Virus record (IMG/VR): IMGVR_UViG_3300037067_027684
Span: 160,001-224,000 of that record
Origin: a virus
Lineage: Duplodnaviria; Caudoviricetes
Direction: 5' to 3' (one strand)
Length of the DNA stretch: 64,000 bases
This document shows, in pieces, positions 41,804 through 64,000 of this stretch. The position numbers and the translations under genes were made by a program. Numbering within the stretch: position 1 is the stretch's first letter; each line of letters begins with the position of its first letter. A model generated the notes under the pieces. It was given only the letters and a program-made list of their open reading frames with translations. It ran no database searches and was not told the DNA's origin.

Positions 41804-42003
41804 TTCGATGGTCGGTGCTTTAATATAAAGACCAAGACAATGACTTAGGACTCTTACTCCTGCCTCTGATTGAAGCGCTGACATCACTAAACATCGGCTC
41901 GACCAAATCCTCCACTCTGAAAAGGAGTTTAGGGTCACCACTTATGGTAACAGACCAGTCTTCAACAGAGAACCTAACCTCATGGTAAGATGCAGCTAAG
42001 TCT

Positions 42004-46812: not shown

Positions 46813-46813
46813 T

Positions 46814-47191
46814 TTAGTCTCCTTTCAGTGATTTCTTCAACTTGTCGATCAACTTAGAACTTCCTGAGCGCCAGTCCCAATGGTTATCAGAATAAACTAA
46901 GCCAGAGTAAACTTTCTTGAACTTCTTTGAGCCGATTTTGCAGCGATAAGGAAAATCCTCCATTATAACAAATTGAGACAGCGTGAAATCGACAACTTCG
47001 TCTCCGAAGGTAAGAACATTGTGTCCTATGAGGCCAACACTTACGTAACAGATCCTTGCTTTGACGCCTGCTTGTTCGGCGGTTATTCTTATCGCTTCAC
47101 AAACGTCGGCACATTGGTTTTCTGAGTTTCTGGGTAAGCGGTATTCATTTAGGATTGGTGTGATTGTTTTGATGAAGTGATTCTTAGTCAC
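46814..47191 (-). CDS. hypothetical protein, possible papain-like C-H-D triad
   Basis: NQC...GHNVL...VVDFT. Confidence 0.45.
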   Translation of the reverse strand: MTKNHFIKTITPILNEYRLPRNSENQCADVCEAIRITAEQAGVKARICYVSVGLIGHNVLTFGDEVVDFTLSQFVIMEDFPYRCKIGSKKFKKVYSGLVYSDNHWDWRSGSSKLIDKLKKSLKGD

Positions 47192-47466
47192 GACTATCCC
47201 TCAATTTGTGAATCCGCTTCAACACAGATTTCTTAGTCCCAATAAAGAAGAATACATCTGGGTCTAGAGGTATTACGAATATTGGCTTTTTACCGGCTTT
47301 TTGAGCCAATTCAAAACCATTCATGAAAATCTCATAACCAGTTGAACCATCATTGTCGTAACCTCTTGTACAACCTGAGTCGGCTGCATCAGAAAGCTCA
47401 TCATAGTCCTTCTTTTCGGCTAATTCAGTAATTTCTTGGTCCTGCTTGAAGTCCATTTGAATCTCC

Positions 47467-47826
47467 TTATTGCATCAATTTCTCGAACGCTTGTCGCCGC
47501 TTCTTAGCTGCCTGCATGACTTCTTCGTCTTCAGGGTATTTGTCCCCATGTTCTGAGACGATTTTGACACCAGTGTGGATTGCAATTTGGTTGACCATCT
47601 CTTCAACGTCATTCCTGCCGTATCGGATAAAGTATCGAACGTACTTGGTACTACTGCCTCCATAGGCCCAAAGGTAGTCTGTGCTTTGGTCTGTGCGATA
47701 CTTGAGGCATCGATCAGTTTTGGTCGTATCTTTGGTCTTTTCTTCTGTGATTCCTGGTGTTGAGAGTACATCCTTCCAGGTTACTTTGTGTTTTCCTCTT
47801 CCGAAGAATTCGTAATCGCAACTCAT
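47467..47826 (-). CDS. hypothetical protein
   Basis: AAGGAG RBS. Confidence 0.65.
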   Translation of the reverse strand: MSCDYEFFGRGKHKVTWKDVLSTPGITEEKTKDTTKTDRCLKYRTDQSTDYLWAYGGSSTKYVRYFIRYGRNDVEEMVNQIAIHTGVKIVSEHGDKYPEDEEVMQAAKKRRQAFEKLMQ

Positions 47827-48325
47827 TTTATTCTCCTTAACGGTCGTATGGCATTAACTTCCCGTTTTTAATCAATTCGACAACCCCAACTACGTTGTCA
47901 ATTGCTAACTCCTTAACTTCACCATTCCTTAATGTTACGTAGAGTTGTTCACCAGCTGGGTAAACTTGGATTGGTCCCAAATGGACCGTATCTTTAAGGC
48001 AATCAAGGACGAGGAAGTCTTCACCATTACATTCATCGGGGTGGTTTTCGGTCACCACAATCATCCCGAGTTTTTCGAATTCTGTGATCAGTTGTTCTAG
48101 GCGCATTTTTAGTCCCATCCGATGTTCTGGCTTGCGGTTGTGTGGCGTTCGTCACCACCTGGAAGTTCACGTAGTTCCTTCATTCGCTTTTGCCAATATT
48201 CACCTGTTTCGCCTTGGAACCAGGGACTTCCTATTGGAGCGTTGCGCCAACGCTCTAGGAGGCTTTCATAGCTCATCCCATCGATGTGAGCCTTGTTTTC
48301 TTTCGTGAGGTCCATTGGAATCTCC

Positions 48326-48637
48326 TTACAGCCGCTTCGCACATTTGGCAGAGCAGGCGACCGCACAGCCAGCGTCTTCGGGGTTGACTTCCGTGATCTT
48401 GCCACAGACTGCGCAAGGGACGTAGGCTACTTTCGCTTCCTTCACTCTGGCTAGGAGTTCTTTGTTGATTTCTTTTTCTGCGTCTCGGATTGCTTTGTCT
48501 GCTCTGGTTACATAGGGGTCTCCTTTGGAGGCGTCTCGACCGAAGCCGATTCGCATGAGGCTCAGGTATTGTGATCTGAGCATTCTGGTTGTTTCGAGAA
48601 GTTCGAACCAGATGTCTTTCTTCTGTTTCTTAGGCAT
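48326..48637 (-). CDS. hypothetical protein with CxxC zinc-binding tail
   Basis: CAVCG...CSAKC. Confidence 0.6.
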   Translation of the reverse strand: MPKKQKKDIWFELLETTRMLRSQYLSLMRIGFGRDASKGDPYVTRADKAIRDAEKEINKELLARVKEAKVAYVPCAVCGKITEVNPEDAGCAVACSAKCAKRL

Positions 48638-48648
48638 GGGTTTCTCCT

Positions 48649-49029
48649 TTAACCAACGAACGGTACTTTATTTCTCTCGCTATCCCTGATCATCAGATCA
48701 AGAAGTATCGGCCCAATTCCCTCGCCAAGACAGCCTTGTTCAGCGAGCCATACGTCAGTGGAGGAGTTCATCTGAAACTCCCCACCCTTCCACCCTATAA
48801 AAGTCTTACCAAGTGACGACTTAGCGCACTTTAGCATCTCACCAATTGTAACGTCTTTCATTGGCTCGAATGCGAGTTGGTCGTAATACCCTCGGTAGCT
48901 GTGTGGATTCCCGAATCCTTGTCGGGCTATCAGGGTTTTGTCTTGCTTGCTTAGAAAGTCGATCAGTTCTTCAAGTGTCATTAGTTTCTCCTTTGTCATC
49001 CCCGGTACTTCAAAGCGTGATACAAACAT
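48649..49029 (-). CDS. phage hypothetical protein
   Basis: PHSYRGYYDQLAFEP...GWKGGEF motif familiar from phage genomes. Confidence 0.65.
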   Translation of the reverse strand: MFVSRFEVPGMTKEKLMTLEELIDFLSKQDKTLIARQGFGNPHSYRGYYDQLAFEPMKDVTIGEMLKCAKSSLGKTFIGWKGGEFQMNSSTDVWLAEQGCLGEGIGPILLDLMIRDSERNKVPFVG

Positions 49030-49373
49030 CTAACCATGAACTGCAAAGCTTCTTTTGAGAAGACAACATCGTACTTCCTAGCCAAGGCAATTCCCTTGTC
49101 CCAAGCGTCCTTCTCACAAGTGAACTTATAGACACCAAGATCAGTTATGCTGTCAATGTGGCAGTGGGGTCCAAGAATGTGGCCAACTTCGTGAAAGAAG
49201 GAGGCCAATCGAACGCTCTCATTCTTATACTTCCCAAGTAGGACTTCTCTGCCGATGACAAAACTTGCTTCTTGTAGGACTTTTCTGTCGATTGCCAAAC
49301 TTGCTTCATCATAATTCCTAACTACTAGGTTGAAGTCATGAGCTACTTTCTTGATTATTTCGTCATTCGACAT
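48996..49373 (-). CDS. HExxH metallopeptidase-like protein
   Basis: FFHEVGH plus downstream EKDAW. Confidence 0.55.
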   Translation of the reverse strand: MSNDEIIKKVAHDFNLVVRNYDEASLAIDRKVLQEASFVIGREVLLGKYKNESVRLASFFHEVGHILGPHCHIDSITDLGVYKFTCEKDAWDKGIALARKYDVVFSKEALQFMVRCLYHALKYRG

Positions 49374-50556
49374 TTTTATCTGTCCTTTAGTCTCCAGGCA
49401 TTGGAGTGTTTACCGTTAACTTAAGAGCTTCTTGCAAAGCCAACCCAAGTTTAACCGCCATCGGGTTTAGCTTGATCACCTTCAGGAACTCGTCTTCCGT
49501 CTCAGGCAAGGCAAAGGATGATGGAGCATTTATTACTTTAACAGCTCCGGTTGATTTATTGTCAAGCACAAAACCAGCACCAGTTCGGGAATGTTCCCGC
49601 CTCCACTTCCCGTCCTTGGATTTCCAGCGGACAACACAAGGATGGAAGGAGACATGCAAATCATGAATATCCCCATAGAAGCATACCTCGACTTTTGTGC
49701 AATATGCTTTCATGTGGTCCTCCTTTCAACCCACTTGCCATCAACCACCCAACCCATATCGGCAGCATGATCTCTTAACTCATAGAATGAAATTGGCAAG
49801 TTAGGGAAGCGAGGCGGATCGACATCAACCCAAATGGTCTCAAACACCACCGTGGGTATTGACTTCATCGCCGTCAACCTATTATAGACTTCCCTAAACG
49901 CATCCTTTGGGGAGTCGTAAGTCCCAACTTCCTTCATTTCAAAGGTGAGCTTGAACTTGCGTCGAAGTATCACATCTGTGGCCAAAATCTCCATTTTAGT
50001 CTCCATTCTTGGCCCTAGGGCCACTAACAATCATCCTTGAGACGGCGGTCACAACGTCATCAACGCCTTCAGAATCACGCCAGATGAAAGTCCGTCCAAC
50101 ATGGGCTGCTCTGCAATCGAAACCTGCTCCATTCTCTTGGATGAGGATCACGTCTCCAAGGTAGATGACTTCGATGTTTCGATCCTCATTCAGGATGATC
50201 AGGCTTTCTTGGTTACGTTCGTGTTCTTTTTCGACTTTGTAATCCTTATTGAATGCTTCGACCAGAGCTTCGTGGCATTGGTTGTCGGTCATTTTAATCT
50301 CCTAGGAATTGCCTCAACTCAAACCAAGAGGCAAACTTCTTATCACCTTCAGAGCATCGGTCAATTGACCAATCCAGTGAAACTCGGAAGTAGCCGTTAC
50401 AGAACCAAATGTGCCAATCTCCGACTTCAAAGGATTTGCCGCTGCGTAATGCTTCTTCTGTTATCTCCTGGATATAGGCATCTGCTGCTTCGTCTGTTCG
50501 AAGATTTCGCTCATCTTGCTCATCCATCTTCTTGGTTACTTCGGAGTATTTGTCAG

Positions 50557-50976
50557 TCATTTTAATCTCCTAGAAGAAATCGCCACAAACTGTGGGTCAT
50601 CTCCGTAAACCACAATTGAGCAACCAGGATCACCAAAAATCGGATCACCAAACACCCAATTAGGCGTCACAGAAAATTGCGCCACTGTGCTTGGCCCGTA
50701 TCGCTTCCCCAAGTAGGCGAGGATTGCCTCAAGGCCACTTGTCTCAAAGAAGTAAGTGGTCATTCCCTTGCGCCGTCGTTTGTGTCCTTCAGGGACGGGG
50801 AGTTCCTTGGCGATTGACCGCAACTTCTTAAGCACTGGCATCCAAGGCAGCGAGTCGTGAATTGACTTGGCACAGGGCGGTTCGTCTCGGTACTTAGCTC
50901 CGCATCGGTCACATTTCATTTTCGGCTCCTTATTGGTGAACATTAGCTTATCGAAATCGACTCGTAGTTTCTTCAT
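50557..50976 (-). CDS. hypothetical protein
   Basis: ATGA overlap. Confidence 0.6.
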   Translation of the reverse strand: MKKLRVDFDKLMFTNKEPKMKCDRCGAKYRDEPPCAKSIHDSLPWMPVLKKLRSIAKELPVPEGHKRRRKGMTTYFFETSGLEAILAYLGKRYGPSTVAQFSVTPNWVFGDPIFGDPGCSIVVYGDDPQFVAISSRRLK

Positions 50977-52442
50977 TTTCGGCCCCTCTTTTTCAGTTCA
51001 AACCCCTCGGGGAGGTAGGCAATGTCGGCCATGATGAAGTTATCGCCATTACCTAGCTCGAAATCTGAGAAGCTGCATTTGTTTTTGAATTCCGGTTCCT
51101 CTTTATCCTCCTCATCTAAGCCATCATCACCAAAGGATGATTCATATTCTTCTGACATTTCTTTCTTGAGTTCAGCCAACGTTTCAGCGTGGATCAGTGA
51201 ACCAGCTCCGGATGGTTCGTTCTGTTCGCAGACGTAAGCCCTGAGTACGAACAGGCCAGGGACGAATTTGGCGGGTTTGTCGTATTGTGCGTTGCTCATT
51301 TTACCTCCACAAGTTCAAGTTTCTTATTGATTGAATCCCAGACGGGATCTGTCTGCGGGTTGCTCTTGCTCCGCATTAACTTCAGGACATCATCGCCAAG
51401 AGATTCAGGACAAGACGACGCTGAATCTCGGCATATTTCTAGGCATCTCAGAATGAGAGCTTTCTCTTTCTTAGTGAGGATCATTTTGGTCTCCTTAGCG
51501 TGAGAACATTTGGATTGCCAACATCTTCTTACGATTCTCGCTGAAATCGTCGTAGAATTCCTCGTCAAGACTAGACGCTTCCTTCAGAGGCTCTTCATCC
51601 AGAAAACCAAGGTCTCCGTCAGCCACTAGGATTACGGCGCTCTCATTCGGTGGGAGTGCCGCAAAATGCTTAGCTGCTTGTTCGTTTGTCATTTGGCCTC
51701 CAGTTTGTAAAGAGGTGGCTCACCAAGAAGTGCCCTTGCTTCATCGGCGATTCGGCAATTCTCCCAAGTATCGGGGAATGCACACTCGTAAGCGCCATCT
51801 GCGTAGCGGGTCAACTCACGAACCATGTCTTCAAGTTCCTGAATCCTACAATCACTGCAGATGAATTTCTTTGTGAGTGTTGGAGTTTCTTTCTTACATC
51901 TTTCGCAAATCATATTGACTCCTTCTTAGCTCAGCATCTTGATTGGGTAGGAGCACGGTGAAACCAAGTGCTCAACCTTCACACCCCTCTCACCAAACAC
52001 CCGCACAGCCCACTTTCGGATGACAACTGGGACATCATACCACCTGATTGCTCTGTACCAACCACTACCAGGGAAGAATTCCCCTTCCTTCTCGACTCGT
52101 TCAACGAAGAAGGAAACGCAGCCTCGTCCTTGGTATTCGGCCTTCCATTTCCGGCCTTTCTTGGTCACGTAGTTGATCTCGTTTCTGCTCATTTTAATCT
52201 CCTTTTAGAATTTAACAGCAAACACCCCATTCGGGCATTTCTTAATCAAGAGTTGATTGTCCTTATCAAGGAGTGGAATTGTATCAAGCCTGTTCACCGC
52301 GTACATGTCGGACCCTCTCACGAAGGGAAAGAAGCCCTCCAATTCGGGATCAGCATTTATTACTGCTTGGATCACCGCAACCTTATCTAATTGGGCTTGG
52401 AGGTCACTCATGTTTCATCCTCACTTCTCATGTCGAATCTCC

Positions 52443-53543
52443 TTATTTCGGAAGTCCGACGATCTTCTCTGGGGGTTTAAAACCAATGATCTTAGTTGTC
52501 TTTGGCTTTTTCCCAAGCAACTTCAACATCGCCCTGAAATCCCTCTGCTCTTTCTTGCGCTTAGCCAACTCCAATTTAGCGTTCTTGATGAACCTCTTGA
52601 CTTCACTCAATCCAACTTCTGCCCTCGCCCTAAGAGCCTCATGAACCGAAACTGGGTCAGGATCGCAATAATGGTCATGTATCTTACCCGCAGCATCAAT
52701 GTCACAGATTGGGTATTGACAACCACACAATGAGACATAGATCCTGCCCTTTTTCTCTCCGACTTTCTCCCTTGAGATAGAGAAGCTATTGAAGTACAAA
52801 GTGCGTTGACTCTCCCTGTGTTTGATATTCTGACCGAGAGTTCTCTTCAACAAGTCCCGCAAATACTTGACATCAGATTCTTCGAAAGTCTCAATGTGAT
52901 GATCTTCTGGCAAGCAGTCAATGAAGACTTCCAATTGACCAATTCGATTGAAATAAATCTCATTGATCATTGGGTGTTCAGATTTTGTTACGTCCTTATG
53001 CATAAAGCGAATTCGCGGGCCTTCGTTGTAGCCATCGCCAACACCACCAACTGCGGTGAAGTGTAACTCGCGTCCATCTTCGCGGGTAAACCACAAGCAA
53101 GATCGCTTCCCGAGTTCAGTCTTCTTGCCGCCGAACTTCTCACCTAGGGCATCGACTTGCTCCACTGAGAGTTGGTCATGGAAGACTTTGTCATTCCGTG
53201 ATTTCTGGGATTCATCGATTACCGCTTGAGCTTTCTTAGTCAGTTCCTTCTCAGTCCCGAAGAGGATTGTGACATGCATCCACTCACCATCTAAATCGTT
53301 CAGCCACCAGATTTTGCGACCTTTGGCTTTCTCAGTGACTTTGTTCTCACCCGCAACGACCATTTCTGAGAATTCGCCAGAGCGAGCGTGTGTGTCGAGT
53401 GAGTACATCCAGTCGCATTGGAGGTCTTCTTCTTCTTCGTTGACCTTCCACATTGAGTAGACTAGCTTCTCCAACTTTGGTCCAACCATTTTCCAGCCGC
53501 GTTTGTTCAGTACTGCTTCTGCAACTTCCCAGACTTTAGACAT
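52443..53543 (-). CDS. hypothetical protein (366 aa)
   Basis: AGGAG RBS before MSKVWE. Confidence 0.75.
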   Translation of the reverse strand: MSKVWEVAEAVLNKRGWKMVGPKLEKLVYSMWKVNEEEEDLQCDWMYSLDTHARSGEFSEMVVAGENKVTEKAKGRKIWWLNDLDGEWMHVTILFGTEKELTKKAQAVIDESQKSRNDKVFHDQLSVEQVDALGEKFGGKKTELGKRSCLWFTREDGRELHFTAVGGVGDGYNEGPRIRFMHKDVTKSEHPMINEIYFNRIGQLEVFIDCLPEDHHIETFEESDVKYLRDLLKRTLGQNIKHRESQRTLYFNSFSISREKVGEKKGRIYVSLCGCQYPICDIDAAGKIHDHYCDPDPVSVHEALRARAEVGLSEVKRFIKNAKLELAKRKKEQRDFRAMLKLLGKKPKTTKIIGFKPPEKIVGLPK

Positions 53544-53557
53544 TTTGTAATCTCCTG

Positions 53558-53572
53558 TTTCCACCGTGGAAA
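53558..53572. promoter_or_regulatory. TTTCC-N5-GGAAA palindrome (first of about 8 copies)
   Basis: TTTCCACCGTGGAAA next to an RBS; recurs at 54467, 54898, 57652, 59676, 60680, 61015, 63655. Confidence 0.55.
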
Positions 53573-54481
53573 TGAAATTTATGGCTTCAAGCCAGCCTTA
53601 TTCAAAGCTCGTGCGCAGATCAAGGCGAAATTCCGCTTTGCGAATTCAGCCACAAACTTGAAACCTTTCTTATCCTCAAACACAATGTCCCACGAGATTG
53701 TAGGAGTGCATTTTCCACCAACCTCACAGTTTAGACATCGCTTCACTATGAACTTAGACTTCTTTGACTTAGCCATTTGACCTCCTAATACGTTGGAATT
53801 TCTATGAAACATCCGCTTGGAAGCTTCACCATTCCTCTCCGGTCACCCAACTCCGCCCACCTGTAAGCCTCAGATTCAGACTTCACAGCAACCATAGCAA
53901 TCTTGTCATTCAACAACGTCTGTTCACGATCAAGAACCAAACCCGAATGCCTTAAAGCCTTCTCCATTCCACCAAGACTCCATTCACCACCAACCTCATC
54001 CCATTGAACGCGCATCAGGCACCTCCAAAGTTCCCCGCAATGCACGAGCAAAATCTTCTTGAGTCCAACCACTAGCACGAAGCCGCTCAACCTCAGCTTC
54101 AGCCTCAGCCAGAACTTCAGCCTTGGTTAAAATCTTGCCCCACGGACGCTTGCACCTTGGACAACGCAGGATTCGATCCTTATCAGAATCAACTTGAACC
54201 AAACACCTTGGGCATCTCATTTCATTCTCCTTAGTACTTAGACAAATCGCAAACTTTGATCTCCCTTTGAAACCGTCGATGCTTGTATCCAGAGAATAAG
54301 CAACTGGATCTGACGCAAATCAAATAATCCAAAGCATCTCTGACTTCTAAAGAATCTGGGGCTTCAGATAGAATCTTAATCAACTTTTCGCAAATTAGCG
54401 TAACTCCGCCACGTCCTTTGCCTCTGCTGCTTAGGAAGCGGTTCATTTTACTGTGTTTCAAGAATATTTCCTCCGTGGAAA

Positions 54482-54510
54482 CAGGGATACCCCGTTGAGG
54501 AGTATCCCTG
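54482..54510 (-). terminator. strong hairpin, possible intrinsic terminator
   Basis: CAGGGATACTCC/GGGGTATCCCTG stem followed by only a short U-run. Confidence 0.45.
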
Positions 54511-54544
54511 CTTATTAATCAGTCAATTTAGAGGTGGGAGCTAC

Positions 54545-54865
54545 TCAGATTTCGTCTAATGCACTGTCCAATTTTGCGTCAAAATCAGACGTACTCCATT
54601 TCAAAGCTTCAGCAATAGCCTGCGAGGCGGTCAGATCACCACCTTCTGCGTCATTGGGATCTTCAGCGGGCCAGAGTCCGTAATAGAAGTTATTTGGTTG
54701 CTCTGAAGCTCCACGAAGGACGTAGACCTTCTTAGCTCCTCCTATAACCAGAGCATTCCTGGGTGAAGCATTCAGGTAAGCTTCCATTTCAGGTAGGCTC
54801 TTCTTAACCAGAGGTTGATCAGCCAACACTTCGTCATTCGTTAGGCACACCAATGTCGAATCCAC
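54545..54865 (-). CDS. hypothetical protein with C-terminal FDAKLDSAL motif
   Basis: GGAGGT RBS right after ribozyme B; GTG start. Confidence 0.65.
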   Translation of the reverse strand: MDSTLVCLTNDEVLADQPLVKKSLPEMEAYLNASPRNALVIGGAKKVYVLRGASEQPNNFYYGLWPAEDPNDAEGGDLTASQAIAEALKWSTSDFDAKLDSALDEI

Positions 54866-54877
54866 TTTCACCTCCCT

Positions 54878-54950
54878 CAGGACTTGGGACCTGTCTCTTT
54901 CCGGACTGGAAAGAGAGTTCCTTACAGAGGGAATCACCCTCTGCCCTCGG
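54878..54950 (-). ncRNA. twister-like ribozyme, copy B
   Basis: CC-GAGGG-[CAGAGGG/CCCUCUG]-UAA-GG-AAC-[UCUCUUUCC/GGAAAGAGA]-[CAGG UCCCAAGU CCUG]-RBS. Confidence 0.85.
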
Positions 54951-55443
54951 TCTCATCCGGCTCCAACTCACGCTCACGATCAATAAGCCTCTGATACAAC
55001 GGATGAACCTCAGGCTCCACAGAACTAGTCACCGGAACCTTAGTCCCAGACGGAACCTTGCCAGTAAAGTAAAAATTCGGATCGCCATTCCCAATAAAAG
55101 CATCCTCATCCTCAAACGGCAAAGAACCACCAATAGAACTCCGATCAGCACTTGAAAAACCAGTCCACACCCCAATCGAACCATCCCTCAACAACAGAAC
55201 CTCAGACCACTCACCAATATCATTAACAGATTTTGCATTCAAAACCTGCTGAACATCCGCATCTCCCTCACTAAACCCATAATTCTTCACCATATTCGCA
55301 GCCACCAACTTCTTATACAAGGGTAACGCAGCTTCCTCATTGTCAAAAGCAATTGCATAAGGAGATTCATCCATCTCATCAACAACCACAAATCGACCAC
55401 CAGTCATCAGCGCCTCATCCAGTTTCTTGTCAAAATCAGCCAT
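54934..55443 (-). CDS. hypothetical protein with N-terminal FDKKLDEAL motif
   Basis: GAGGAGG RBS; stop codon lies in the P1 loop of ribozyme B. Confidence 0.7.
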   Translation of the reverse strand: MADFDKKLDEALMTGGRFVVVDEMDESPYAIAFDNEEAALPLYKKLVAANMVKNYGFSEGDADVQQVLNAKSVNDIGEWSEVLLLRDGSIGVWTGFSSADRSSIGGSLPFEDEDAFIGNGDPNFYFTGKVPSGTKVPVTSSVEPEVHPLYQRLIDRERELEPDETEGRG

Positions 55444-55474
55444 CCAACACCTCCTCAACATTTATTTTTACTCC

Positions 55475-55861
55475 TTAAAGTTTCTTCAACACAGACTCCA
55501 TGTCGGGCCTCAACGCAGAAGCCACACTAACAAACAATGGCTTCTCACCCTTCAGATGCCTCCCCAGAGTTGTCTGACGAATCGTGGACTCAAACTTCTT
55601 AATAATTTCAGAGAACACCGAATCCAAACCACGCTGAAGCTTGATATTCCTCATCTCAACAATCTTGCTCATGTCCCGTAAGAGAACCGAAACCAGACAA
55701 CTCACAGCCACCGTCTCAGTATCAACCCACCCAGACGGAGCCGCAGCAACAAACTCATCAAGAACCTTGGCGTATTCCTTCGATTTGCTCTTCTCCTTCA
55801 AAGCAGCCATTAATTCAGCGCTCTTCCCTTCCCACAATTTCTTGAGTTCTGCTTCATCCAT
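55475..55861 (-). CDS. hypothetical protein
   Basis: TAATG coupling. Confidence 0.65.
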   Translation of the reverse strand: MDEAELKKLWEGKSAELMAALKEKSKSKEYAKVLDEFVAAAPSGWVDTETVAVSCLVSVLLRDMSKIVEMRNIKLQRGLDSVFSEIIKKFESTIRQTTLGRHLKGEKPLFVSVASALRPDMESVLKKL

Positions 55862-56868
55862 TATTGTTTCCTTTTAAATTCGCCGTGGTGCTTAACCCAA
55901 ATTGCAATGTACCGATCCCGATCAGCTTCAGTCCAACTTGGGTCAGGTCGAGCAAAACGCTCATCAAGGAATGCCCCGACTTCCCTCAGGTAGGCTAGTG
56001 ATTTCTCCTTCTCAGCGGTGTGAGCAGGAGAGACTTCTGTGCCGCGACTATTGGTCATTCTTCCTCCTCATCAACTCTGCCAATGAACATCATCAAACCC
56101 TCAAGGCTAACGATCTTATCGGCCTTGAAAGGCTGATTGAATTCTTCAACATCAGAGTTGACAATATCTCCACGAGCCTCAACCGCATCAACAAATTCAC
56201 GAACCTCCTCTTCACTCGATCCTGTAACCCCGAAAACCCAGGGCTGATTCTCCATGTTATGGTAATGAACTCTGACACCCTTAGCGCAGTTAATCATTTC
56301 TCCTCCTTATTACTCTTCCTCATCTTCATCCTCGCCCTCACCATCCGGATCAGGCTCCTGAAAATTCAACGTCAAACGAGTCGGGTCATCTTCATTTTCA
56401 TAATCCAAAATCTCCAACCCATCCTTCCGTCCCGCCACAAACTCCTTAACCTTTACCACCTCATCTGGCGTCAAGTTCGATACAGAAAATAACAATCACC
56501 ACAAATAAGATCAAAATCATGCTGGGGCATGTACTCTGTATCAACCTTCTCCTTCCCAACCAGCTTCTTCAAATCCCGAAGAATCTTAGCTCTCTCAAGC
56601 ATACTTGTCTCCTCTCATTCGTAGGGGCACCACTGACACGCATTCTTAGCCAAACTCATTCCTTACCTCCTTTCAAACACCGAGTCGGTCGAATTCTGGA
56701 ATTTCAACCCACACTGAGAGCAGAACCTCCGCGCCTCAGCACAACTAACAAACGGCAACTTATTCAACCGTTCACCACCCGAATCCAACAACCACACGCC
56801 ATCCTTCTCAGATGAAACCCGCACAACCTCTCCACTCTTCTGAATCAAATCCAAATTGCTCATTCTAC

Positions 56869-57300
56869 TCATTGTACCCCTCCTTTCACAAAGTTCAATG
56901 CGTTGTCATTCATGTTGTTGAAGAATTCATTTATGTCACAACTGGGGATAACAGCCAAATCCTGAACAACCCCTTCACCAGTCAACACCCCAACACTCTC
57001 ACTAACCAATTCCCAACCCAAACAACCACAACCACGACCACCATGAACATCAAAACACTCAGCAACCAATCGACCAGCGCCGAAACGAGTCTTCAAAAAA
57101 TCAACAACCGAAGTATGCTTAGCGGGGCCAAAAACCAAAGCCCAACACCCATTAGGCTGATCACACCCACCAGAACCCTGAAAAACAAAGAACCTCTGAT
57201 TGACATCCAGAACCTTGCTCATCGTACCTAGAGCCTCAGTCTTAAACCAACTAAGTGCCTCTTCTCCAACAAAATTCTTCATCTTTTTCTTCCCTTTCAA
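56869..57300 (-). CDS. hypothetical protein
   Basis: tiling ORF. Confidence 0.6.
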   Translation of the reverse strand: MKGKKKMKNFVGEEALSWFKTEALGTMSKVLDVNQRFFVFQGSGGCDQPNGCWALVFGPAKHTSVVDFLKTRFGAGRLVAECFDVHGGRGCGCLGWELVSESVGVLTGEGVVQDLAVIPSCDINEFFNNMNDNALNFVKGGVQ

Positions 57301-57303
57301 TGA

Positions 57304-57621
57304 TTAAGGTTTGGGTTTGGAGACATCGCACGTCTCCTTCAAAATTCGAGCACTCACAACCACGTACTCATCAGCAGGCAAACGCATCTGTTGGTAAACC
57401 CTGGCGAACAAATCCCCAGGTTGAGAATCACGAGCAATCTTCTCACCATCAAGAGTACACTTCAAAATCCCAATCCAATAATCCCGCGAATCACGTAATG
57501 CCTGACAATCCAACGAATTAGGATCACGCTTCACAGCATCGCAAATCCGAAGCGTATAACCAGAAATTCTCTCCTCCAGAGCAACAACAAAAGCTTGACG
57601 AGCAATCTCGAAAGTTTTCAT
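57304..57621 (-). CDS. hypothetical protein
   Basis: GGAGG RBS right after ribozyme C; MKTFEIARQ. Confidence 0.65.
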   Translation of the reverse strand: MKTFEIARQAFVVALEERISGYTLRICDAVKRDPNSLDCQALRDSRDYWIGILKCTLDGEKIARDSQPGDLFARVYQQMRLPADEYVVVSARILKETCDVSKPKP

Positions 57622-57629
57622 GAAACCTC

Positions 57630-57702
57630 CCTGGACTTGGGACCAGGACCCTTTCCACCGTGGAAGGGTGGCCTTACGGGGAGTCAACCTCCCCGCCCTC
57701 GG
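57630..57702 (-). ncRNA. twister-like ribozyme, copy C
   Basis: CC-GAGGG-[CGGGGAG/CUCCCCG]-UAA-GG-CC-P3-[CCUGG UCCCAAGU CCAGG]; begins right after stop codon at 57703. Confidence 0.85.
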
Positions 57703-58014
57703 TTACCGAACAGCATGAATCTCAAACCCCTCAACCGGCACATAAACCTCACGAGTCCTAAAAGACAACGCATGCTGCCACCCATCAACATAAGGGACGC
57801 AAACATCCTGCTTCTCCAACCTGTGTAGAGCCTCCTTCGCCTCATCGTTATTCTCATCCCGCACTTCAGAACCGAGAACCAACTCCAAATCAGCAATAAC
57901 CTCGTTCGCCTCCTCCTGAGTGCCAACAACCACCAAATTGCCGGTGTCAGGCGCATTCCCATCGTAGTCACCGTAAACCGCAACCTTCTCCTCACAGACA
58001 ACCTTCTTACCCAT
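57703..58014 (-). CDS. hypothetical protein
   Basis: AAGGAGGT RBS. Confidence 0.7.
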   Translation of the reverse strand: MGKKVVCEEKVAVYGDYDGNAPDTGNLVVVGTQEEANEVIADLELVLGSEVRDENNDEAKEALHRLEKQDVCVPYVDGWQHALSFRTREVYVPVEGFEIHAVR

Positions 58015-58355
58015 TCAACACCTCCTTGACTTACATCCACTCACTCAACTTAAACCTCGGATCAACCTTCAACGCAGCCTTCACAGCCTTAGCTGTCGCT
58101 ACCCCACTCTTAGACTTCTTCCAAGCAGCCACACTCCCCCACTCACCACCAACCTCCTCCAAATGAGTAGCCTCCGCCTCAGCCGCATCAGCAAAAAGCT
58201 CAGCAACCTCAAGGTGATTCAACTCCTCAAAATGCTCAGCAATAGACGCACAACCATCAGCATGAATCCCAGAACCCTGATGCCACCGAGACGCCTTCGC
58301 CGCAGCCTCAAAAGCCCTAACAGAAGGTTTCTTCGACTCAGACATTTCACACCTC

Positions 58356-58682
58356 CTAATCATTATCAGCCAAATACTGCTTATTCAGACCCGCCAGAAC
58401 ATTAAGGATGTCAATGTGAAGCACATAAGCCTTCGCCCGATCATCCTTTTCAGGCAAATCCTGCCACTTCTCAAGCATCTTCGCAATCGAATCCAACTCA
58501 CGAAATTCAAGAACAATCCTACCAGGATCTGCATCCGCAACGTAAATCTCCAACCTATTCAAGAAACCACGCATAACCTCAGCATCATAATGCGACTTAG
58601 TACAAGCCCCAATAAGCCGTACATCCTCCCTCGAAAGCAACAATTCCGCCTTGGGAGTCCTGATAATCTTAGTCAGCGTCAT
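58356..58682 (-). CDS. hypothetical protein
   Basis: AGGAGG RBS. Confidence 0.65.
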   Translation of the reverse strand: MTLTKIIRTPKAELLLSREDVRLIGACTKSHYDAEVMRGFLNRLEIYVADADPGRIVLEFRELDSIAKMLEKWQDLPEKDDRAKAYVLHIDILNVLAGLNKQYLADND

Positions 58683-58983
58683 TTGAACCTCCTAATTTTA
58701 AGGAACATAACTTTCTTCATTGTACTTCTCCATTTGCATCCTAATCATCAACCGAATAATCTTCTGAGCCTTAGGATCATTCGGAAAATGCAAAGCACCA
58801 CTACCCTCACCACTCAACCACCAAAAACTCAACGGAATGCTGTTGACAGTAGTTCCAAGACAAGGCAAATGATCGTCAACCCAATAATCAACAACCTTGA
58901 CCCTAATCATCTCCTTGCCAGCTAAAGCCTTTCGAAGCCTCTCCTGCTCCTTCTCAGTCAACTCATTGAAAAACCGCTTGAAT

Positions 58984-59454
58984 TTAGTGACCTTCATTAC
59001 TCCCTCCTGGAAGTTCCAAATCCTCAACAACCTCACCACTCACACCCTTAACCCTCGGACGAGCAGCCATCCACCCACCCATCGGGTGCGGCTCCAATAG
59101 CCCCTGTCTCGCCATATCACATAAGAACTGCCCAACCAATTCACGATCAACCCACTTCTCCAGCCCAAAACCCGAATACTCAGTCGGAATCTGAGCCAGA
59201 AAACCAACCCCACTCCTCGCCCTCTCCAAATCCTCCTTCAACAACTCAGCAACCTGCCTCTTCACCCAAGCACGAGCAGCATTGTACGCAGGACGTGGGA
59301 TAACCCCAGTAAACCGCTGCTGATGCAACCTCCGATTCACCCCACCATTCCGAAGTTGAAGCTGAGTCTGCCGAATCCTCAACTTATGCTCAGCAATCAT
59401 CGCCTCAGCCTTCTCAGGTGGCAGCATCCTCCGACAAATCCCCTCAAAGTCCAT
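58984..59454 (-). CDS. hypothetical protein
   Basis: GGAGG RBS. Confidence 0.6.
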   Translation of the reverse strand: MDFEGICRRMLPPEKAEAMIAEHKLRIRQTQLQLRNGGVNRRLHQQRFTGVIPRPAYNAARAWVKRQVAELLKEDLERARSGVGFLAQIPTEYSGFGLEKWVDRELVGQFLCDMARQGLLEPHPMGGWMAARPRVKGVSGEVVEDLELPGGSNEGH

Positions 59455-59455
59455 T

Positions 59456-59671
59456 TCAACCTCCCTTCTTCACGTTGACAAACTTAATCGTAAAATCCTC
59501 CCCCTCAGGCAGAGATTCATCAACAATCATTTCAATCTGCCTCGTCAACTGCTTGACAGTCAATGGGGTCTTGCTCGCACCCCAATACCACAATCCAACA
59601 TTCCTCTGACTACTCTTGCCTGGGACCCTCGGTTTCACGAATGAACCAGCTTTGGTAACTATGACTACCAT
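59456..59671 (-). CDS. hypothetical protein
   Basis: GGAGG RBS downstream of ribozyme D; MVVIVTK. Confidence 0.6.
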   Translation of the reverse strand: MVVIVTKAGSFVKPRVPGKSSQRNVGLWYWGASKTPLTVKQLTRQIEMIVDESLPEGEDFTIKFVNVKKGG

Positions 59672-59702
59672 CTTATTTCCTCCATGGAAAGAGAAAGTAT
59701 TT

Positions 59703-59770
59703 TCTGGACTTGGGACCAGACCCACTTTCAGTGGGGGCCTTACACCCCAAAGGGGAGGGGTGCCCTCGGC
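59703..59770 (-). ncRNA. twister-like ribozyme, copy D
   Basis: GCC-GAGGG-[CACCCC/GGGGUG]-UAA-GGC-C-[CCCACU/AGUGGG]-[UCUGG UCCCAAGU CCAGA]. Confidence 0.85.
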
Positions 59771-59988
59771 TAATAACAATAACCACCATGACTGTGAATA
59801 ACATGCACCACCTTAAACCGACCCCCACCAACTTCCTCTTAGAAAAAGAAAGAAGAGGCCCATTCAAACCCAACAAAACCTCACGCGGATCGTCACACTT
59901 ATCAGCCTTATAAAAATCACCAACCCTCAACAACCTCCGAAACCTCCGATCCCTATAACTCCAAACCCCATAAGTCTTCCTCATAACT

Positions 59989-60047
59989 CCTCCTTATTCA
60001 CCACCAACCACACACCTCCTTATTCACCACCAACCACACACCTCCTT
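59989..60047. repeat. 26-bp tandem duplication containing an RBS
   Basis: CCTCCTTATTCACCACCAACCACACA twice, then CCTCCTT. Confidence 0.9.
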
Positions 60048-60115
60048 TAACCCTTCATGCAATCACGACGACGCTTACGCCGCTCCCTCTTCTTACGCTG
60101 CTTACGCGTCATACC

Positions 60116-60634
60116 TCACCCCTTCTTAGACAACACCATCACCTCAGGCAAACTAAACTCAGGAACAGACACCCCCAACACAAGAACAGCAGCCCCCACC
60201 TCACCCTTCATCGTCAACACAGCAGCCACCCTACCCTTCATCGCCTCAGCACCAGCCCTGAAAGCAACCCGAGCAGCCTCCTTCAAATCCCCAACCCGAA
60301 CCTCCACACCCTCCCTCATAGCCTCAAACGCCTCAACCTGCCCCCTCAACTCCGCAATCTCCCTCACCAAAACCTCACGCGAAGGAGAAACCCCAGCCCC
60401 CTCCACCCCCTCAGCCCGCAACACCCCCACCAACCCCTCCAACCCAACCCCCGAATGAGCAACCTCATCAGACCGACCCTCATAAGACAACTCCCACCTA
60501 CCATCCCCAAACACAGCAATCTCAAAATCCCCAACAAAACCAGTCACAGGATCAGACTCATTCAAAACAACCAACAACTCACGCCCCCTCAACCAATCCA
60601 AAATCCTAACCCCCTCACACCCAAACTCACTCAT
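60116..60634 (-). CDS. hypothetical protein with strongly G/T-biased codons
   Basis: GGAGG RBS before MSEFGCEG. Confidence 0.55.
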   Translation of the reverse strand: MSEFGCEGVRILDWLRGRELLVVLNESDPVTGFVGDFEIAVFGDGRWELSYEGRSDEVAHSGVGLEGLVGVLRAEGVEGAGVSPSREVLVREIAELRGQVEAFEAMREGVEVRVGDLKEAARVAFRAGAEAMKGRVAAVLTMKGEVGAAVLVLGVSVPEFSLPEVMVLSKKG

Positions 60635-60705
60635 CACACACCTCCACTCGCTTCGCTTGTGAAAAGACCAAAACCCCAATTTCCACCACGGAAAAGACCA
60701 ATCCC

Positions 60706-60978
60706 CTACCCCAAACCACCAACCACATAACAAAACCAACCACTAATCACCGAAATATTCGTACGAACCTCCTCAACCTCCAAATCCCGAACCCAACTCA
60801 AACAACCAGGCAACTCAACCAACAACCCCAACTCCCCAGCCTCATACAACTTAAACAACTCATCCACATCCTCCACAGTAAGAGGAGCAGTAGAATAAAC
60901 AGCAACAACCTCACCATCAGAATTATGAGGATTAACAATAGTCGTAATCGACACCACAGAACTCCTCACATCACCCAT
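60706..60978 (-). CDS. hypothetical protein
   Basis: GAGGAGGT RBS. Confidence 0.6.
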   Translation of the reverse strand: MGDVRSSVVSITTIVNPHNSDGEVVAVYSTAPLTVEDVDELFKLYEAGELGLLVELPGCLSWVRDLEVEEVRTNISVISGWFCYVVGGLG

Positions 60979-60984
60979 TCAACA

Positions 60985-61439
60985 CCTCCTCGCTTGTCCT
61001 CGCTTCGCTCGGAATTTCCTCCGTGGAAATAGAAACATCTTTCTATCGCCTCAAAACCAATCCCAAATTTAAAACTCTCAAACCCCGAAATCCCCTCACA
61101 AACTCACAGTACTTAGGCTAACCAATTCCCTCAATCCGAGAAATACCCCCTTAGAAATAATTCCTGAAAACCGAGTGGGTTATAATTCGAGGTGTTCCAC
61201 ATGGTGATTTCTCATTCCTCACGAAGTATCTCAAAATTAAACTAATGTACTCATTGATACGAAAAGCCCCAACCCAGGAATTATTTCCCCTGAGTTGGGG
61301 TTAATTGACTATTAGAGTAGTTCTAGTTGTAGGAGAAACCATTCCAAAATTAATCAACATACACATCGAAAATATCTGATGCTTGAATCAAACGCTTGTT
61401 TGAATCACTCATTTGAAACAAGCACAAATCCCCCCTTTT
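60985..61439. other. non-coding gap at a compositional discontinuity (candidate origin/control region)
   Basis: about 450 bp with no ORF in the track, several inverted repeats, end of the C/A skew. Confidence 0.4.
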
Positions 61440-61835
61440 TTAATCAGCGTTCCCGTCAACAAAGTGAGTAAGCTTAAACCGCCAAATCACCTCATCAGCA
61501 GTTCGGGACCAGAATCGGGGTTCCAGGATAGAATTCCTCACGATTTCGAGTAAATCCCCCTTCGTCCCAACCCACCTGAAATCGTACTCACCCCAACCAA
61601 GAGTGATTTGATTTCCTTCGTGGAAGTCCCTGATCATCTTCTTCATGTCTTCTGATTCTTCGTCCAAATCCAGCTCCAACTCAAGTGTTTCCTTGGTGAG
61701 ATCGAGGATCGGACCCATTAGCCCAAGTGAGTTGGCTGGTTGGATGTTGTTGCTTTCTGTGCGGAAGACGAGAAAGAGATCTTCGCCTCCACGGTCGGTT
61801 CCGTGAACTAAGTCGCAGCTTACTTTGATTTTCAT
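61440..61835 (-). CDS. hypothetical protein
   Basis: GGAGG RBS. Confidence 0.7.
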   Translation of the reverse strand: MKIKVSCDLVHGTDRGGEDLFLVFRTESNNIQPANSLGLMGPILDLTKETLELELDLDEESEDMKKMIRDFHEGNQITLGWGEYDFRWVGTKGDLLEIVRNSILEPRFWSRTADEVIWRFKLTHFVDGNAD

Positions 61836-61860
61836 TGGCTTCCTCCCTTACTCCGTTTGG

Positions 61861-62136
61861 TTAGGCGTAGAGGATTGCGCAGAGTGCACGACCAGAAGCA
61901 CTAACGATTTGAGACTCCTCGTCATTCCCACGTGTGACTTCAAGGAGATGAACACCACTTTGAGGTGAAGTTAAAAGCCTGACTGTAGCCTTGTACCTGT
62001 CTTTCCTCTCGTCGCCATCATTCCAACATTGGACGGTTGCTACCTTGCCCTTGATTTTCAGGAGTTTGATGTTGAAATCTAACTCCATTTTGCCGTAACT
62101 GTTGGCTCTTTGGATCACTTCTTTGAGGATGTTCAT
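61861..62136 (-). CDS. hypothetical protein
   Basis: AAGGAG RBS before MNILKE. Confidence 0.65.
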   Translation of the reverse strand: MNILKEVIQRANSYGKMELDFNIKLLKIKGKVATVQCWNDGDERKDRYKATVRLLTSPQSGVHLLEVTRGNDEESQIVSASGRALCAILYA

Positions 62137-62208
62137 TTGGCTCTCCTTGCTGTCTGTAATCGTTTTCATCTGACCGACTTCGGATTCAGATGTGTTTATC
62201 AGCTCTTG

Positions 62209-62490
62209 CTATTTGCTGGGGTAGACTGCCTTGCACTTGGTGCAGCGGTAAACCTCAAAAGGATGTTTCTTGATACGGTAAATCCTCTCACCGCACCTGC
62301 AGAGTCCTTTGGGGCGTCTTACCTCAAAGACTTGTTTCAAATCAGGTGGGTCGAGTGGTGGCATCCAGGCGTTGAAGAGTAAGCTCATGATTGCTTTGCC
62401 TTCGGGCATTTTACTTAGGATGACTCGGGCGTCTTTCAGGTCTTCTGGTTTGAAGGTGTTTGTGACATCTTCGATTTTTAGTGGTTCCAT
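62209..62490 (-). CDS. zinc-ribbon hypothetical protein
   Basis: CRCG...CTKC; RBS right after ribozyme E. Confidence 0.65.
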   Translation of the reverse strand: MEPLKIEDVTNTFKPEDLKDARVILSKMPEGKAIMSLLFNAWMPPLDPPDLKQVFEVRRPKGLCRCGERIYRIKKHPFEVYRCTKCKAVYPSK

Positions 62491-62502
62491 TGGCTCCTCC
62501 CT

Positions 62503-62571
62503 CAGGACTTGGGACCTGTGAGCTTAAATGCTCAGTTCCTTACAGAGAGGTTTTAGCCTCTCTGCCCTCGG
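62503..62571 (-). ncRNA. twister-like ribozyme, copy E
   Basis: CC-GAGGG-[CAGAGAGG/CCUCUCUG]-UAA-GG-AAC-[UGAGC/GCUCA]-[CAGG UCCCAAGU CCUG]-RBS; starts 1 nt after stop codon. Confidence 0.85.
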
Positions 62572-62572
62572 T

Positions 62573-62896
62573 TTACTTTTTGAGTTGGGCCATTGCAGCT
62601 TTGAGGAGTTCCTTCTTGGCGGCTTTCTTCTCAGCCTTCCGCTGGTCACTGCATTTGGTGCAGGTGTCGATTTGGAAGAGGTCGGAGGTGAAGACCCAGC
62701 GGGAGTCGTCGCAGCAGAGTTGGCAGCTGATTTTCACTTTGTACTTGCCTGCGGCTTCATCGAAAGTGAGGGTGTCGCTGAAGGCGTGGGGGTATTTGTC
62801 CAGGTTGGCTTTGATTTTCTCCAACTGGAGGTCCTTCTTGGCTTTGATTTTCTCGGCGAGTGCGAGAATCTCGGGTGTGACTTCTGTCTGTGGCAT
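62573..62896 (-). CDS. CxxC-CxxC zinc-binding hypothetical protein
   Basis: GAGGAG RBS before MPQTEV; CQLC...CTKC. Confidence 0.7.
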   Translation of the reverse strand: MPQTEVTPEILALAEKIKAKKDLQLEKIKANLDKYPHAFSDTLTFDEAAGKYKVKISCQLCCDDSRWVFTSDLFQIDTCTKCSDQRKAEKKAAKKELLKAAMAQLKK

Positions 62897-63249
62897 GGTC
62901 TGTCTCCTCTGCCCCGTTGGGGCGTGTGGGTTTGGGCGGGTTCTCCCGCCTCTCCCGTCCTGTGGCGCTCCCTTGGCTCTCTGGGGAGGTGCAATTTGGT
63001 TGAAGTGGTGAGTCACCTCCTGTACCCCCGCTTGTTGGTGGCGGTTGGTTGGTATTCTGGGGATGGTTTGAATAGCAAGAGTTGATAAATTCAATCAGAG
63101 ACGATTCCCTACCTTAAGGTTCCTGACAGCAAGGGTTGCTAAATTCCAGCTTGGAAAGGGTATCCCGCTTGGACGTTCACGGATACCCTAGCTTCTCCCC
63201 GTTCGGGTGGTGACTGGGAGGAAGAGAAACAACTCTTCCTCCCATTATG

Positions 63250-63621
63250 TTAACGAACCAAATAGCGACGGAATTCTTCTGAAACTTTCTTTCCGTCAGT
63301 TCCGATTGCATCTTCTCTGGTGACTTTCTTTCCGTCAACTCCGATTGACCATCGGTCGGAGCAATCACTTCCTGCGTTCGGAGTTTGTTTCTTTTGTTCG
63401 AAGGCTTTTTGGAAGATTTCGATGGGGTAGACGGCTTCAAGGCACGCCGTTAAATCAAGGCGGTTGAGGAAGTACCAGCTTGCGTCAACCTCGTCGTACC
63501 CGTTGATTTTTCGGGCTTCGTTTTCTTCGGCTGGGAAGTCGAAGATTTTGACGTAGTGTCCGTCCCAGTTGGTTTTGTTGCAGATTGCAACGTAGGTTCC
63601 TGCTTTGGTGTAGTTGTGCAT
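63250..63621 (-). CDS. hypothetical protein with IGxDGKKV repeat
   Basis: GGAGG RBS right after ribozyme F; 25-bp repeat at 63284 and 63323. Confidence 0.65.
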   Translation of the reverse strand: MHNYTKAGTYVAICNKTNWDGHYVKIFDFPAEENEARKINGYDEVDASWYFLNRLDLTACLEAVYPIEIFQKAFEQKKQTPNAGSDCSDRWSIGVDGKKVTREDAIGTDGKKVSEEFRRYLVR

Positions 63622-63632
63622 TGGGCCTCCCT

Positions 63633-63759
63633 CCAGGACTTGGGACCTGGTCGCTTTCCGGTGTGGAAAGCGAGTTCCTTACAAGGGAGAGGGATGACTT
63701 TGGGCACCCATGTGTTGATGGGCTTTGCCGTTAGTTCTTTCGCTCTCCGTTGCCCTCGG
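63633..63759 (-). ncRNA. twister-like ribozyme, copy F (51-nt P1 loop)
   Basis: CC-GAGGG-[CAACGGAGAG...CUCUCCCUUG]-UAA-GG-AAC-[UCGCUUUCC/GGAAAGCGA]-[CCAGG UCCCAAGU CCUGG]-RBS. Confidence 0.8.
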
Positions 63760-64000
63760 GACTTCCTTAATGCGTTTTCACTTTTCTGCCCTCTGTGCCT
63801 CTTTGCTCCTAAACTCACAAAAAGAATTCAAAATGTTTTGGAGTTTACTGAGTGCCCGGTGGTCGTGTCACTTGTTCACCCCTTTCGGTTTGCTTCGCTT
63901 GCTTAATTTGTGGGAATAGGGAGGGGGGCACTGCAGTGCCCCACCAGTGAGGCGAAGCTCCGCCACAAGCGGCCTCTAGCCTCAACTAAAAAGGCAGACC

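Follow-up and report, generated by a model that had tools for sequence, protein, structure and literature searches.

Type-P5 twister ribozymes recur directly ahead of ribosome-binding sites in the small-gene region of an uncultivated jumbo phage

What are the structured elements that recur between small genes towards one end of a 64,000-nucleotide stretch of a phage genome, and what might they do to the messages in which they lie? The stretch, called the window below, comprises bases 160001–224000 of a 246,684-bp IMG/VR virus genome (record IMGVR_UViG_3300037067_027684; CheckV completeness 91%), so that a genome coordinate equals the window coordinate plus 160000, and positions are those of the window unless the genome is named. 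The phage setting is given by the virus record and its tail-protein PHROG match, and the genome is that of an uncultivated 247-kb jumbo phage. The original prediction, made from the letters of the window alone, had picked out five minus-strand elements (copies B to F below) resembling twister, a class of self-cleaving ribozyme reportedly described by Roth et al. in 2014, and had proposed that they process a polycistronic mRNA. The roles of self-cleaving ribozymes in bacteria and phages are still largely unsettled, and a 2019 review names the processing of polycistronic transcripts as a possible role of the twisters and hammerheads that lie near phage genes, and calls its purpose unproven (PMC6765202). 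The identity of the elements at this locus, their structure, covariation and placement, and their recurrence in relatives can all be observed directly, and they are taken up here before the question of function.

The first step is to establish what the elements are and how many there are. Using cmscan against Rfam 15, in which Twister-P5 is family RF02684 with a gathering score of 37.6 bits, we recovered all five proposed elements, with coordinates agreeing to within 1 nt and with no competing family at any of the sites. RF02684 matches ten copies in the genome, denoted A to I and G′, four of which reach the gathering score (44.3, 40.0, 39.0, and 38.0 bits), including three of the original five (E, B, and D); the remaining six score 36.7, 33.8, 33.6, 33.0, 30.6, and 23.7 bits, mainly because of insertions in the P1 and P3 stems. 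A covariance model of the subfamily (R1), run over the whole 246.7-kb genome, returns exactly these ten sites (E 1e-13 to 5e-4). Twister-sister, which belongs to the same Rfam clan (CL00120), is ruled out, with no match listed up to E = 10 and with clan competition retaining Twister-P5 at every site, and Rfam scans found no other ribozyme class in the genome or in 20 related loci. The five sites are therefore real, and what had been described as an array of five is in fact a nine-copy array plus one isolated copy: nine copies fall within 11.5 kb that extend beyond the window end, four of them past it (genome 226261–226335, copy I; 225716–225792, H; 225015–225089, G; 224587–224677, G′), and the tenth, copy A, stands alone near the other end of the window. 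All ten are oriented like the genes around them. Those within the window are:

Copy F, 63634–63760, minus strand: RF02684 23.7 bits; predicted cleavage between 63681 (U) and 63680 (A); UUUCC-N5-GGAAA hairpin in P3.
Copy E, 62503–62572, minus strand: RF02684 44.3 bits, E 6e-6; predicted cleavage 62542/62541.
Copy D, 59704–59770, minus strand: RF02684 38.0 bits; predicted cleavage 59742/59741; P3 without the UUUCC hairpin.
Copy C, 57631–57703, minus strand: RF02684 33.0 bits, E 0.005; R1 61.9 bits; predicted cleavage 57676/57675.
Copy B, 54878–54951, minus strand: RF02684 40.0 bits; predicted cleavage 54924/54923; UUUCC-N5-GGAAA hairpin in P3.
Copy A, 1909–1974, minus strand: RF02684 33.8 bits; R1 50.4 bits; predicted cleavage 1946/1945; in the 5′ untranslated region (UTR) of the open reading frame (ORF) 1699–1860.

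Parsing each copy separately gives one and the same order of elements in all ten, namely the 5′ strand of P2, GAGNG, a closed P1 hairpin, UAA, the 3′ strand of P2, the P3 hairpin, and P4 with its loop L4. The 5′ strand of P2 has two or three nucleotides, usually ACC, and its 3′ partner is GG (GA in copy I); the conserved strand is GAGGG in most copies and GAGAG in A and H; P1 is a closed hairpin of 6–8 GC-rich pairs with a sequence that is wholly different from copy to copy; and P4 reads CAGG or CUGG and is capped by the loop UCCCAAGU, which A and H replace by UCUCAAGU. The P1, P3, and P4 stems thus vary between copies yet stay paired, as had been proposed, and the cleavage sites of copies B to F found by this parse are identical to those first predicted. 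Compensation is visible even within the single genome: in the middle pair of the T1 pseudoknot GAGAG goes with UCUC (A and H; in copy A, which is followed by a hairpin, the Shine–Dalgarno (SD) sequence AAGGAGG, and ATG, the pair is GAGAG with UCUCAAG), in P2 UC goes with GA (copy I), and in P4 CAGG/CCUG exchanges with CUGG/CCAG. Folded in isolation, nine of the ten copies adopt precisely the P2/P1/P3/P4 helices as their minimum free energy (MFE) structure (z −2.2 to −6.5), and copy E retains 100% of its structure when folded in its sequence context. Copy F, whose low RF02684 score is due to a 48-nt insertion in the P1 loop, has an extended P1 that folds at −23.2 kcal/mol and an MFE fold that contains the full twister helices (z −4.3), and comparable P1 extensions occur at the related loci L071, L073, and L054.

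The same architecture can be followed well beyond this genome. A pattern scan of metagenome contigs yielded 55 loci, several of which hold arrays, with a dozen or more copies on the 31.9-kb contig of L064, at least 11 on the single 37.5-kb contig of L065 and L066, and 2–5 copies within 1–3 kb on short contigs; a general type-P5 descriptor matched IMG/VR sequences in at least 117 stretches, some of them arrays of 3–5 copies. A covariance model seeded on four gap-free copies, with members taken at E ≤ 1e-5, retrieved 76 subfamily members from groundwater, sediment, and similar metagenome contigs, and its alignment was used in place of one made with MAFFT, in which the variable stems were misaligned. 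Standard pairs occupy 95.5% of the pair cells in these 76 members, against 71.0% in shuffled and 30–59% in slid controls, the fitting of the alignment to the model in itself favoring pairing and the gap to the slid controls being large nevertheless. Double-sided changes number 421 cells, 20 of the 24 pairs covary, and none of 500 shuffles reaches the observed values. Pairing amounts to 98.6% in P1, 100% in P2, 99.7% in P4, and 99.1% in T1, the pseudoknot formed by GNG of GAGNG with CNC of L4, whose middle position is taken by G-C in 70 members, by A-U in 3, and by G-U in 1; the second pair of P2 is CG in 65, UA in 5, UG in 4, and GC in 1, and that of P4 is AU in 32, UA in 31, and CG in 10. The Rfam scores together with this covariation bear out the type-P5 identity that had been put forward, with its U/A scissile bond, GAGGG T1 strand, and UCCCAAG loop. 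We conclude from the sequences that the elements are genuine type-P5 twisters, which lack a P5 stem and in which a loop closes P1, and that they are predicted to cleave themselves.

Do they need to cleave at all? One could imagine that the twister fold is kept without cutting, as a structured leader that recruits ribosomes or binds a phage protein. P4 abuts the SD in nearly all copies, which would suit such a role, as would the second pseudoknot, T2 (PK1), which is incomplete in most subfamily members. With its register set by analogy with Osa-1-4, T2 is predicted to have both of its Watson–Crick pairs (AC against GU) in B, E, F, G, and H, and a single C-G beside C·U in A, C, D, and I; across the subfamily it is fully Watson–Crick in about 9 of 75 members, its two positions being paired in 47%. 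The nucleotides around the active site tell against this reading, since the first G of GAGNG is kept in 75 of the 76 members, the scissile U in 75, the two A residues that follow in 76 each, and the G of CAAG in 74. We take the first of these to be the probable counterpart of the catalytic G45 of Osa-1-4. A table of the catalytic residues of Osa-1-4, G45 among them, is available (PMC6154101). Near-invariance of the catalytic and cleavage-site nucleotides is the pattern expected where catalysis is selected for; in a plain hairpin these bases would be dispensable, and a non-catalytic scaffold would likewise have no use for the scissile U-A, the next A, and the catalytic G that persist in 75–76 of 76 members. 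Ribozymes that aid translation initiation have been reported in RNA viruses (PMC13725137), and the cases so reported are eukaryotic. A non-cleaving leader is in our opinion very unlikely.

The position of the ribozymes among the genes is the second pillar of the argument. In copies I, H, G, F, E, C, and B, P4 is followed directly by (G)AGGGAGG, with the start codon 9–14 nt past the ribozyme, in line with the earlier description of B, C, E, and F as ending at the next ribosome-binding site (RBS; starts 9–12 nt on in these four) and of D as standing apart from it (its end is 32 nt from the start codon). The upstream edges are equally close-set: the TGA of ORF 54934–55461 falls inside the P1 loop of copy B, the TAA of ORF 57703–58014 overlaps copy C by one base, the last of the stop codon and the first of the ribozyme, and copy E starts immediately past the TAA of ORF 62573–62896, so that the starts of these three at or over a stop codon are likewise as described; in copy G, as in B, the upstream stop lies within the P1 loop. 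The subfamily as a whole repeats this geometry, 56 of 77 members having both SD and start codon no more than 45 nt past the ribozyme 3′ end (median distance to the start codon 13 nt), and upstream stops being clustered within a few nucleotides of the 5′ edge. The claim that the ribozymes mark gene boundaries holds insofar as they lie directly 5′ of SD sites, and has to be narrowed insofar as only some boundaries are marked: ribozymes divide approximately 33 small genes into segments of 1–9, and everywhere else the genes adjoin tightly with no ribozyme between them. The signals adjoining the copies within the window are:

63619–63633, minus strand: SD GAGGGAGG and ATG (63621), the SD abutting P4 of copy F; opens a 123-aa ORF, 63250–63621.
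62488–62502, minus strand: SD AGGGAGG and ATG (62490); opens a 93-aa ORF and with it a run of three genes that ends at the terminator-like hairpin.
61267–61300, minus strand: terminator-like hairpin, a 14-bp stem followed by a T-rich tail, dividing the A/C-rich from the G/T-rich block of the array.
59676–59690, minus strand: free-standing UUUCC-N5-GGAAA hairpin between copy D and ATG 59671, with the SD GGAGG in its loop and 3′ arm.
57619–57630, minus strand: SD GGAGG and ATG (57621); opens a 105-aa ORF and with it a run of about nine genes that ends at copy B.
54863–54877, minus strand: SD AGGGAGG and GTG (54865) of a 106-aa ORF 3′ of copy B.

These signals also bear on how the array is transcribed. 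The original prediction had all five elements in one polycistronic mRNA; the terminator-like hairpin at 61300–61267, taken with a sharp change of strand composition at the same place, argues instead for at least two transcription units, and the array as a whole probably spans at least two. For the minus-strand genes, the coding strand switches at this hairpin, in the direction of transcription, from A/C-rich to strongly G/T-rich, and the plus-strand GC skew, in order of rising coordinates, goes from −0.43 (54000–62000) to +0.07 (62000–64000), a change that suggests two gene blocks of different origins. A second terminator-like hairpin lies just 5′ of copy I; scans for sigma-70 promoters and for terminators gave counts no higher than those in shuffled sequence.

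With identity and placement in hand, a role can be proposed. We think it probable that the type-P5 twisters, lying in leftward small-gene transcripts, cut these messages into segments with standard leaders, and we infer that this cleavage takes place in vivo. Small accessory genes would be transcribed leftward into long RNAs that contain the ribozymes in sense orientation, each ribozyme as part of a module in which a stop codon at or inside the ribozyme 5′ edge is followed by the ribozyme, by a strong SD touching the base of P4, and by a start codon 9–14 nt on. Since L4 is needed for catalysis and is transcribed last, the U/A bond would be cut only as the downstream RBS is about to emerge, that is, self-cleavage would be co-transcriptional and would follow once L4 is made. 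The upstream product would then end in the stable P1 hairpin with a 2′,3′-cyclic phosphate, and the downstream product would begin with 5′-OH-AAGG and continue through the P3 and P4 hairpins into the SD. Cleavage would in this way uncouple each segment of 1–9 genes from its neighbors and give it a standard, context-independent leader with its own rates of decay and translation.

Several observations weigh against this proposal. Copy D sits within the open frame 59673–59984, and cleavage there would leave a message without a stop codon; copy G′ has CAAA in place of CAAG in L4, a G-to-A change in a conserved motif, and no gene behind it. Nearest-neighbor folding predicts no consistent change of SD accessibility on cleavage, and the notion that cutting unmasks the SD was rejected, as its predicted unpaired probability rises in copy E (0.38 to 0.97) and falls in copy C (0.35 to 0.19). 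In Bacillus, RNase J1 reportedly recognizes the 5′-OH end that the glmS ribozyme leaves on its RNA (Collins et al. 2007), and the 5′-OH end that the original prediction took to be protected by its hairpin need therefore not be a stabilizing one. Furthermore, a high-throughput assay of natural twisters found the PK1 pseudoknot to be sensitive to mismatches (PMC11662667), and as T2 is incomplete in half of the copies of this genome, some of them may be slow.

Part of this evidence would also suit a different purpose for the same cleavage, in which it shortens the life of the downstream or upstream message and so acts as a timer or shut-off for early accessory genes. A stop-less message for ORF 59673–59984, SD accessibility that cutting does not improve, and, from the glmS case, a host-dependent fate of 5′-OH ends are each compatible with such a switch. 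In every 3′ product, however, a pair of stable hairpins would lie no more than 7 nt from the 5′ end, together with a very strong SD, and every 5′ product would end in a GC-rich P1 hairpin, both being classic stabilizing types of end, and we regard a timer as fairly improbable. Whether the ends would stabilize or destabilize depends on the RNases of the host, to which the phage Cas7 gives no lead, having no relative in genome contigs.

The products could in principle also meet a third fate. Most copies have the same P2, T1, and L4 sequences, so that neighboring ribozyme halves could pair and reassemble, and the fragments between them be circularized into circular mRNAs, ligated either by RtcB, for which the predicted ends are chemically right, or by the reverse reaction. 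This was rejected as a candidate, and we consider it extremely improbable: there is no RtcB in the phage genome, compensatory changes fall within copies and not between neighbors, the fragment from I to H would set GA/UCCC against CC/GAGAG with two mismatches, and cleaved halves would be held by only some 5–7 base pairs.

A further question is why some junctions carry a ribozyme and others do not, and here the relatives are informative. Homologues of ORF 54865–54545 at L037 and L062 lack the upstream twister that the gene has here; conversely, homologues of 58014–57703 and 59454–58984 have one at L068, L065, and L064, and none here; and the homologue of ORF 63250–63621 at L066 has one there too. 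More generally, homologues of array genes occur in other contigs in altered order, with or without an upstream twister. In strain variants from landfill, genes are missing or exchanged, one joint coinciding exactly with the 5′ edge of copy D (59770), and strain contigs part from the present sequence at the 3′ edge of copy C (57628/57630), these contigs being short and partly cross-mapping between paralogous copies. Ribozyme occupancy thus appears labile, in a manner that fits cassette-like turnover as far as short contigs allow; from one relative to another, junctions appear to have acquired or shed ribozymes, which is new here.

Such turnover invites the view that the units are mainly portable cassette borders, whose conserved 3′ half, made up of UAAGG, the P3 hairpin, P4/L4, and the SD, offers short homology for the swapping of small genes between phages, cleavage being secondary. 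Promoter-stem-loop repeats in the hyperplastic regions of T4-type phages offer a parallel. The strain-variant joints at ribozyme edges and the reordering of homologous genes between contigs would be expected of borders, and the nearly identical 3′ halves of copies I, H, G, F, and B beside unrelated P1 stems would be so as well. Recombination, in contrast, needs neither invariant catalytic nucleotides nor compensatory changes in P1, P2, P4, and T1; the conserved P3 sequence is common to distant contigs, which points to function rather than to recent conversion; and the strain contigs on which the view draws have the shortcomings just named. As the main role of the units, a cassette border seems unlikely to us.

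The conserved P3 sequence deserves attention of its own, because it is not confined to ribozymes. The palindrome TTTCC-N5-GGAAA occurs at 23 sites in the 246.7 kb, against approximately 1.2 expected from block shuffles, and 12 of the 23 lie in the array region; the sites in the window include 59676–59690, 61015–61029, 60680–60694, 54467–54481, 53558–53572, 28054–28068, and 14943–14957. It fills the P3 position in copies I, H, G, F, and B, and elsewhere in the array region it stands alone, directly 5′ of an SD. In the subfamily the hairpin is present in 47 of 75 distinct ribozymes (in a relaxed form, in P3 in 45 and at the tip of P1 in 5), and it is absent from all 93 other viral type-P5 candidates. 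Its stem sequence is conserved and its loop is variable, apart from an A in first place and G or U in last place on the sense strand. Judged from these occurrences, the hairpin is an independent, clade-specific module that is new here; it could be an RNA protein-binding site or a DNA operator, and the asymmetry of the loop weakly favors RNA. A link to Cas6e was discarded, the hairpin of the CRISPR repeat of this phage (CCCGC-GTAA-GCGGG) being unrelated. It is tempting to go further and to see the twister as one half of a two-part portable leader in this phage clade from groundwater, sediment, and landfill, the other half being a UUUCC(A)-N3-5-(U)GGAAA hairpin that would bind a phage factor deciding the fate of the cistron, and the unit moving with or between small accessory genes as an integron-like, self-processing cassette array; we offer this as a speculation that we ourselves find rather unlikely. 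A search of viral contigs for the exact twister–SD junction sequence gave no match.

Further features were recorded around the ribozymes. Copies G′ and F flank a gene-free stretch of about 0.9 kb that holds a tRNA-like sequence, running from window 63990–64000 on to genome ~224170, with acceptor, D, and T arms and a large insert of ~107 nt at the anticodon-loop position; ARAGORN makes no call there, and Rfam sees only a tmRNA/tRNA-like 3′ end. On the 5′ side of copy A (1990–2100), a terminator-like hairpin is followed by a 5-codon mini-ORF (ATG CGG CGA TGG TCC TAA), which has a strong SD of its own and ends ~28 nt upstream of the ribozyme. At 60040–60100, a tandem duplication of ~26 nt with AAGGAGG lies just 5′ of ATG 59984 and is preceded by a 21-codon Arg/Lys-rich mini-ORF. 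Among the proteins of the array, 14 have no Pfam or PHROG match. Two paralogues of ~110 aa with an invariant CxxC...CxxC pattern and a TSD.FQ motif, usually VFTSDLFQ, are encoded at 62573–62896 and genome 226515–226853, and homologues adjoin twisters at L054, L064 (three copies), L066, and L074; the protein has no Pfam or PHROG match, and its model (pLDDT 83.8) has no PDB match at E 0.001, with weak Atlas leads by which it may be a treble-clef zinc finger. Elsewhere in the genome are a type I-E CRISPR-Cas system at 46545–53950 (L013:6545-13950), with Cas3, Cse1/Cas8e (PF09481, E 3e-52), and Cas7 (PF09344, E 1.8e-91) and an array in which spacers of 32 nt separate ~10 repeats, each 29 nt long; a tRNA whose anticodon is CUA (301–374); a Mom-family protein (41995–43575); a C-methyltransferase split by an intein with a LAGLIDADG endonuclease (91687–94161); and a PurA/PurZ-like adenylosuccinate synthetase (240186–241445).

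The value of the locus lies in what it brings together. A single genome here supplies ten natural versions of the same ribozyme, with and without a complete T2, and shows them in three situations: at gene junctions, within a 5′ UTR, and on either side of a non-coding RNA. The junctions at which a ribozyme has been gained or lost in relatives form a comparison set for asking whether cleavage insulates, stabilizes, or destabilizes cistrons, and the array is a source of natural twister-based insulator parts. The current picture of what these elements are is unchanged.

How, finally, does the locus compare with systems already described? It has in common with the type-P5 twisters of RF02684 the order of elements, the conserved GAGNG, UAA, and GGUCCCAAG, a covarying T1, and an optional P3; it differs in that the subfamily has AAGUCC rather than AAGCCC in L4, a 2-bp P2, no P5 stem, a T2 reduced to one C-G pair in most members, and a P3 that usually bears the UUUCC-N5-GGAAA hairpin. 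In its proposed action it resembles the RiboJ-type synthetic insulators, engineered from hammerheads and reportedly introduced by Lou et al. in 2012, in which a ribozyme and a hairpin directly 5′ of the RBS remove the upstream context and leave a uniform leader; RiboJ is an engineered hammerhead part, whereas the elements here are natural twisters, and the two have no common family. The closest counterpart is found in prophages, where tandem hammerheads flank single genes in polycistronic RNAs and cleave in vitro and in E. coli (PMC3088659, Perreault et al. 2011). There, too, several self-cleaving ribozymes of the same orientation lie between small genes of a phage-type operon, and nine sense-strand copies between genes in 11.5 kb amount to the same ribozyme-punctuated layout, with a different ribozyme class, ten copies in place of two or three, and stop codon, ribozyme, and SD joined precisely into one unit. 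The arrangement is thus already known in phages, and the present locus is a large, clean example of it and not a new type of element, distinguished by its copy number, its reduced T2, its clade-specific P3 hairpin, and the signs of gain and loss of ribozymes at junctions.

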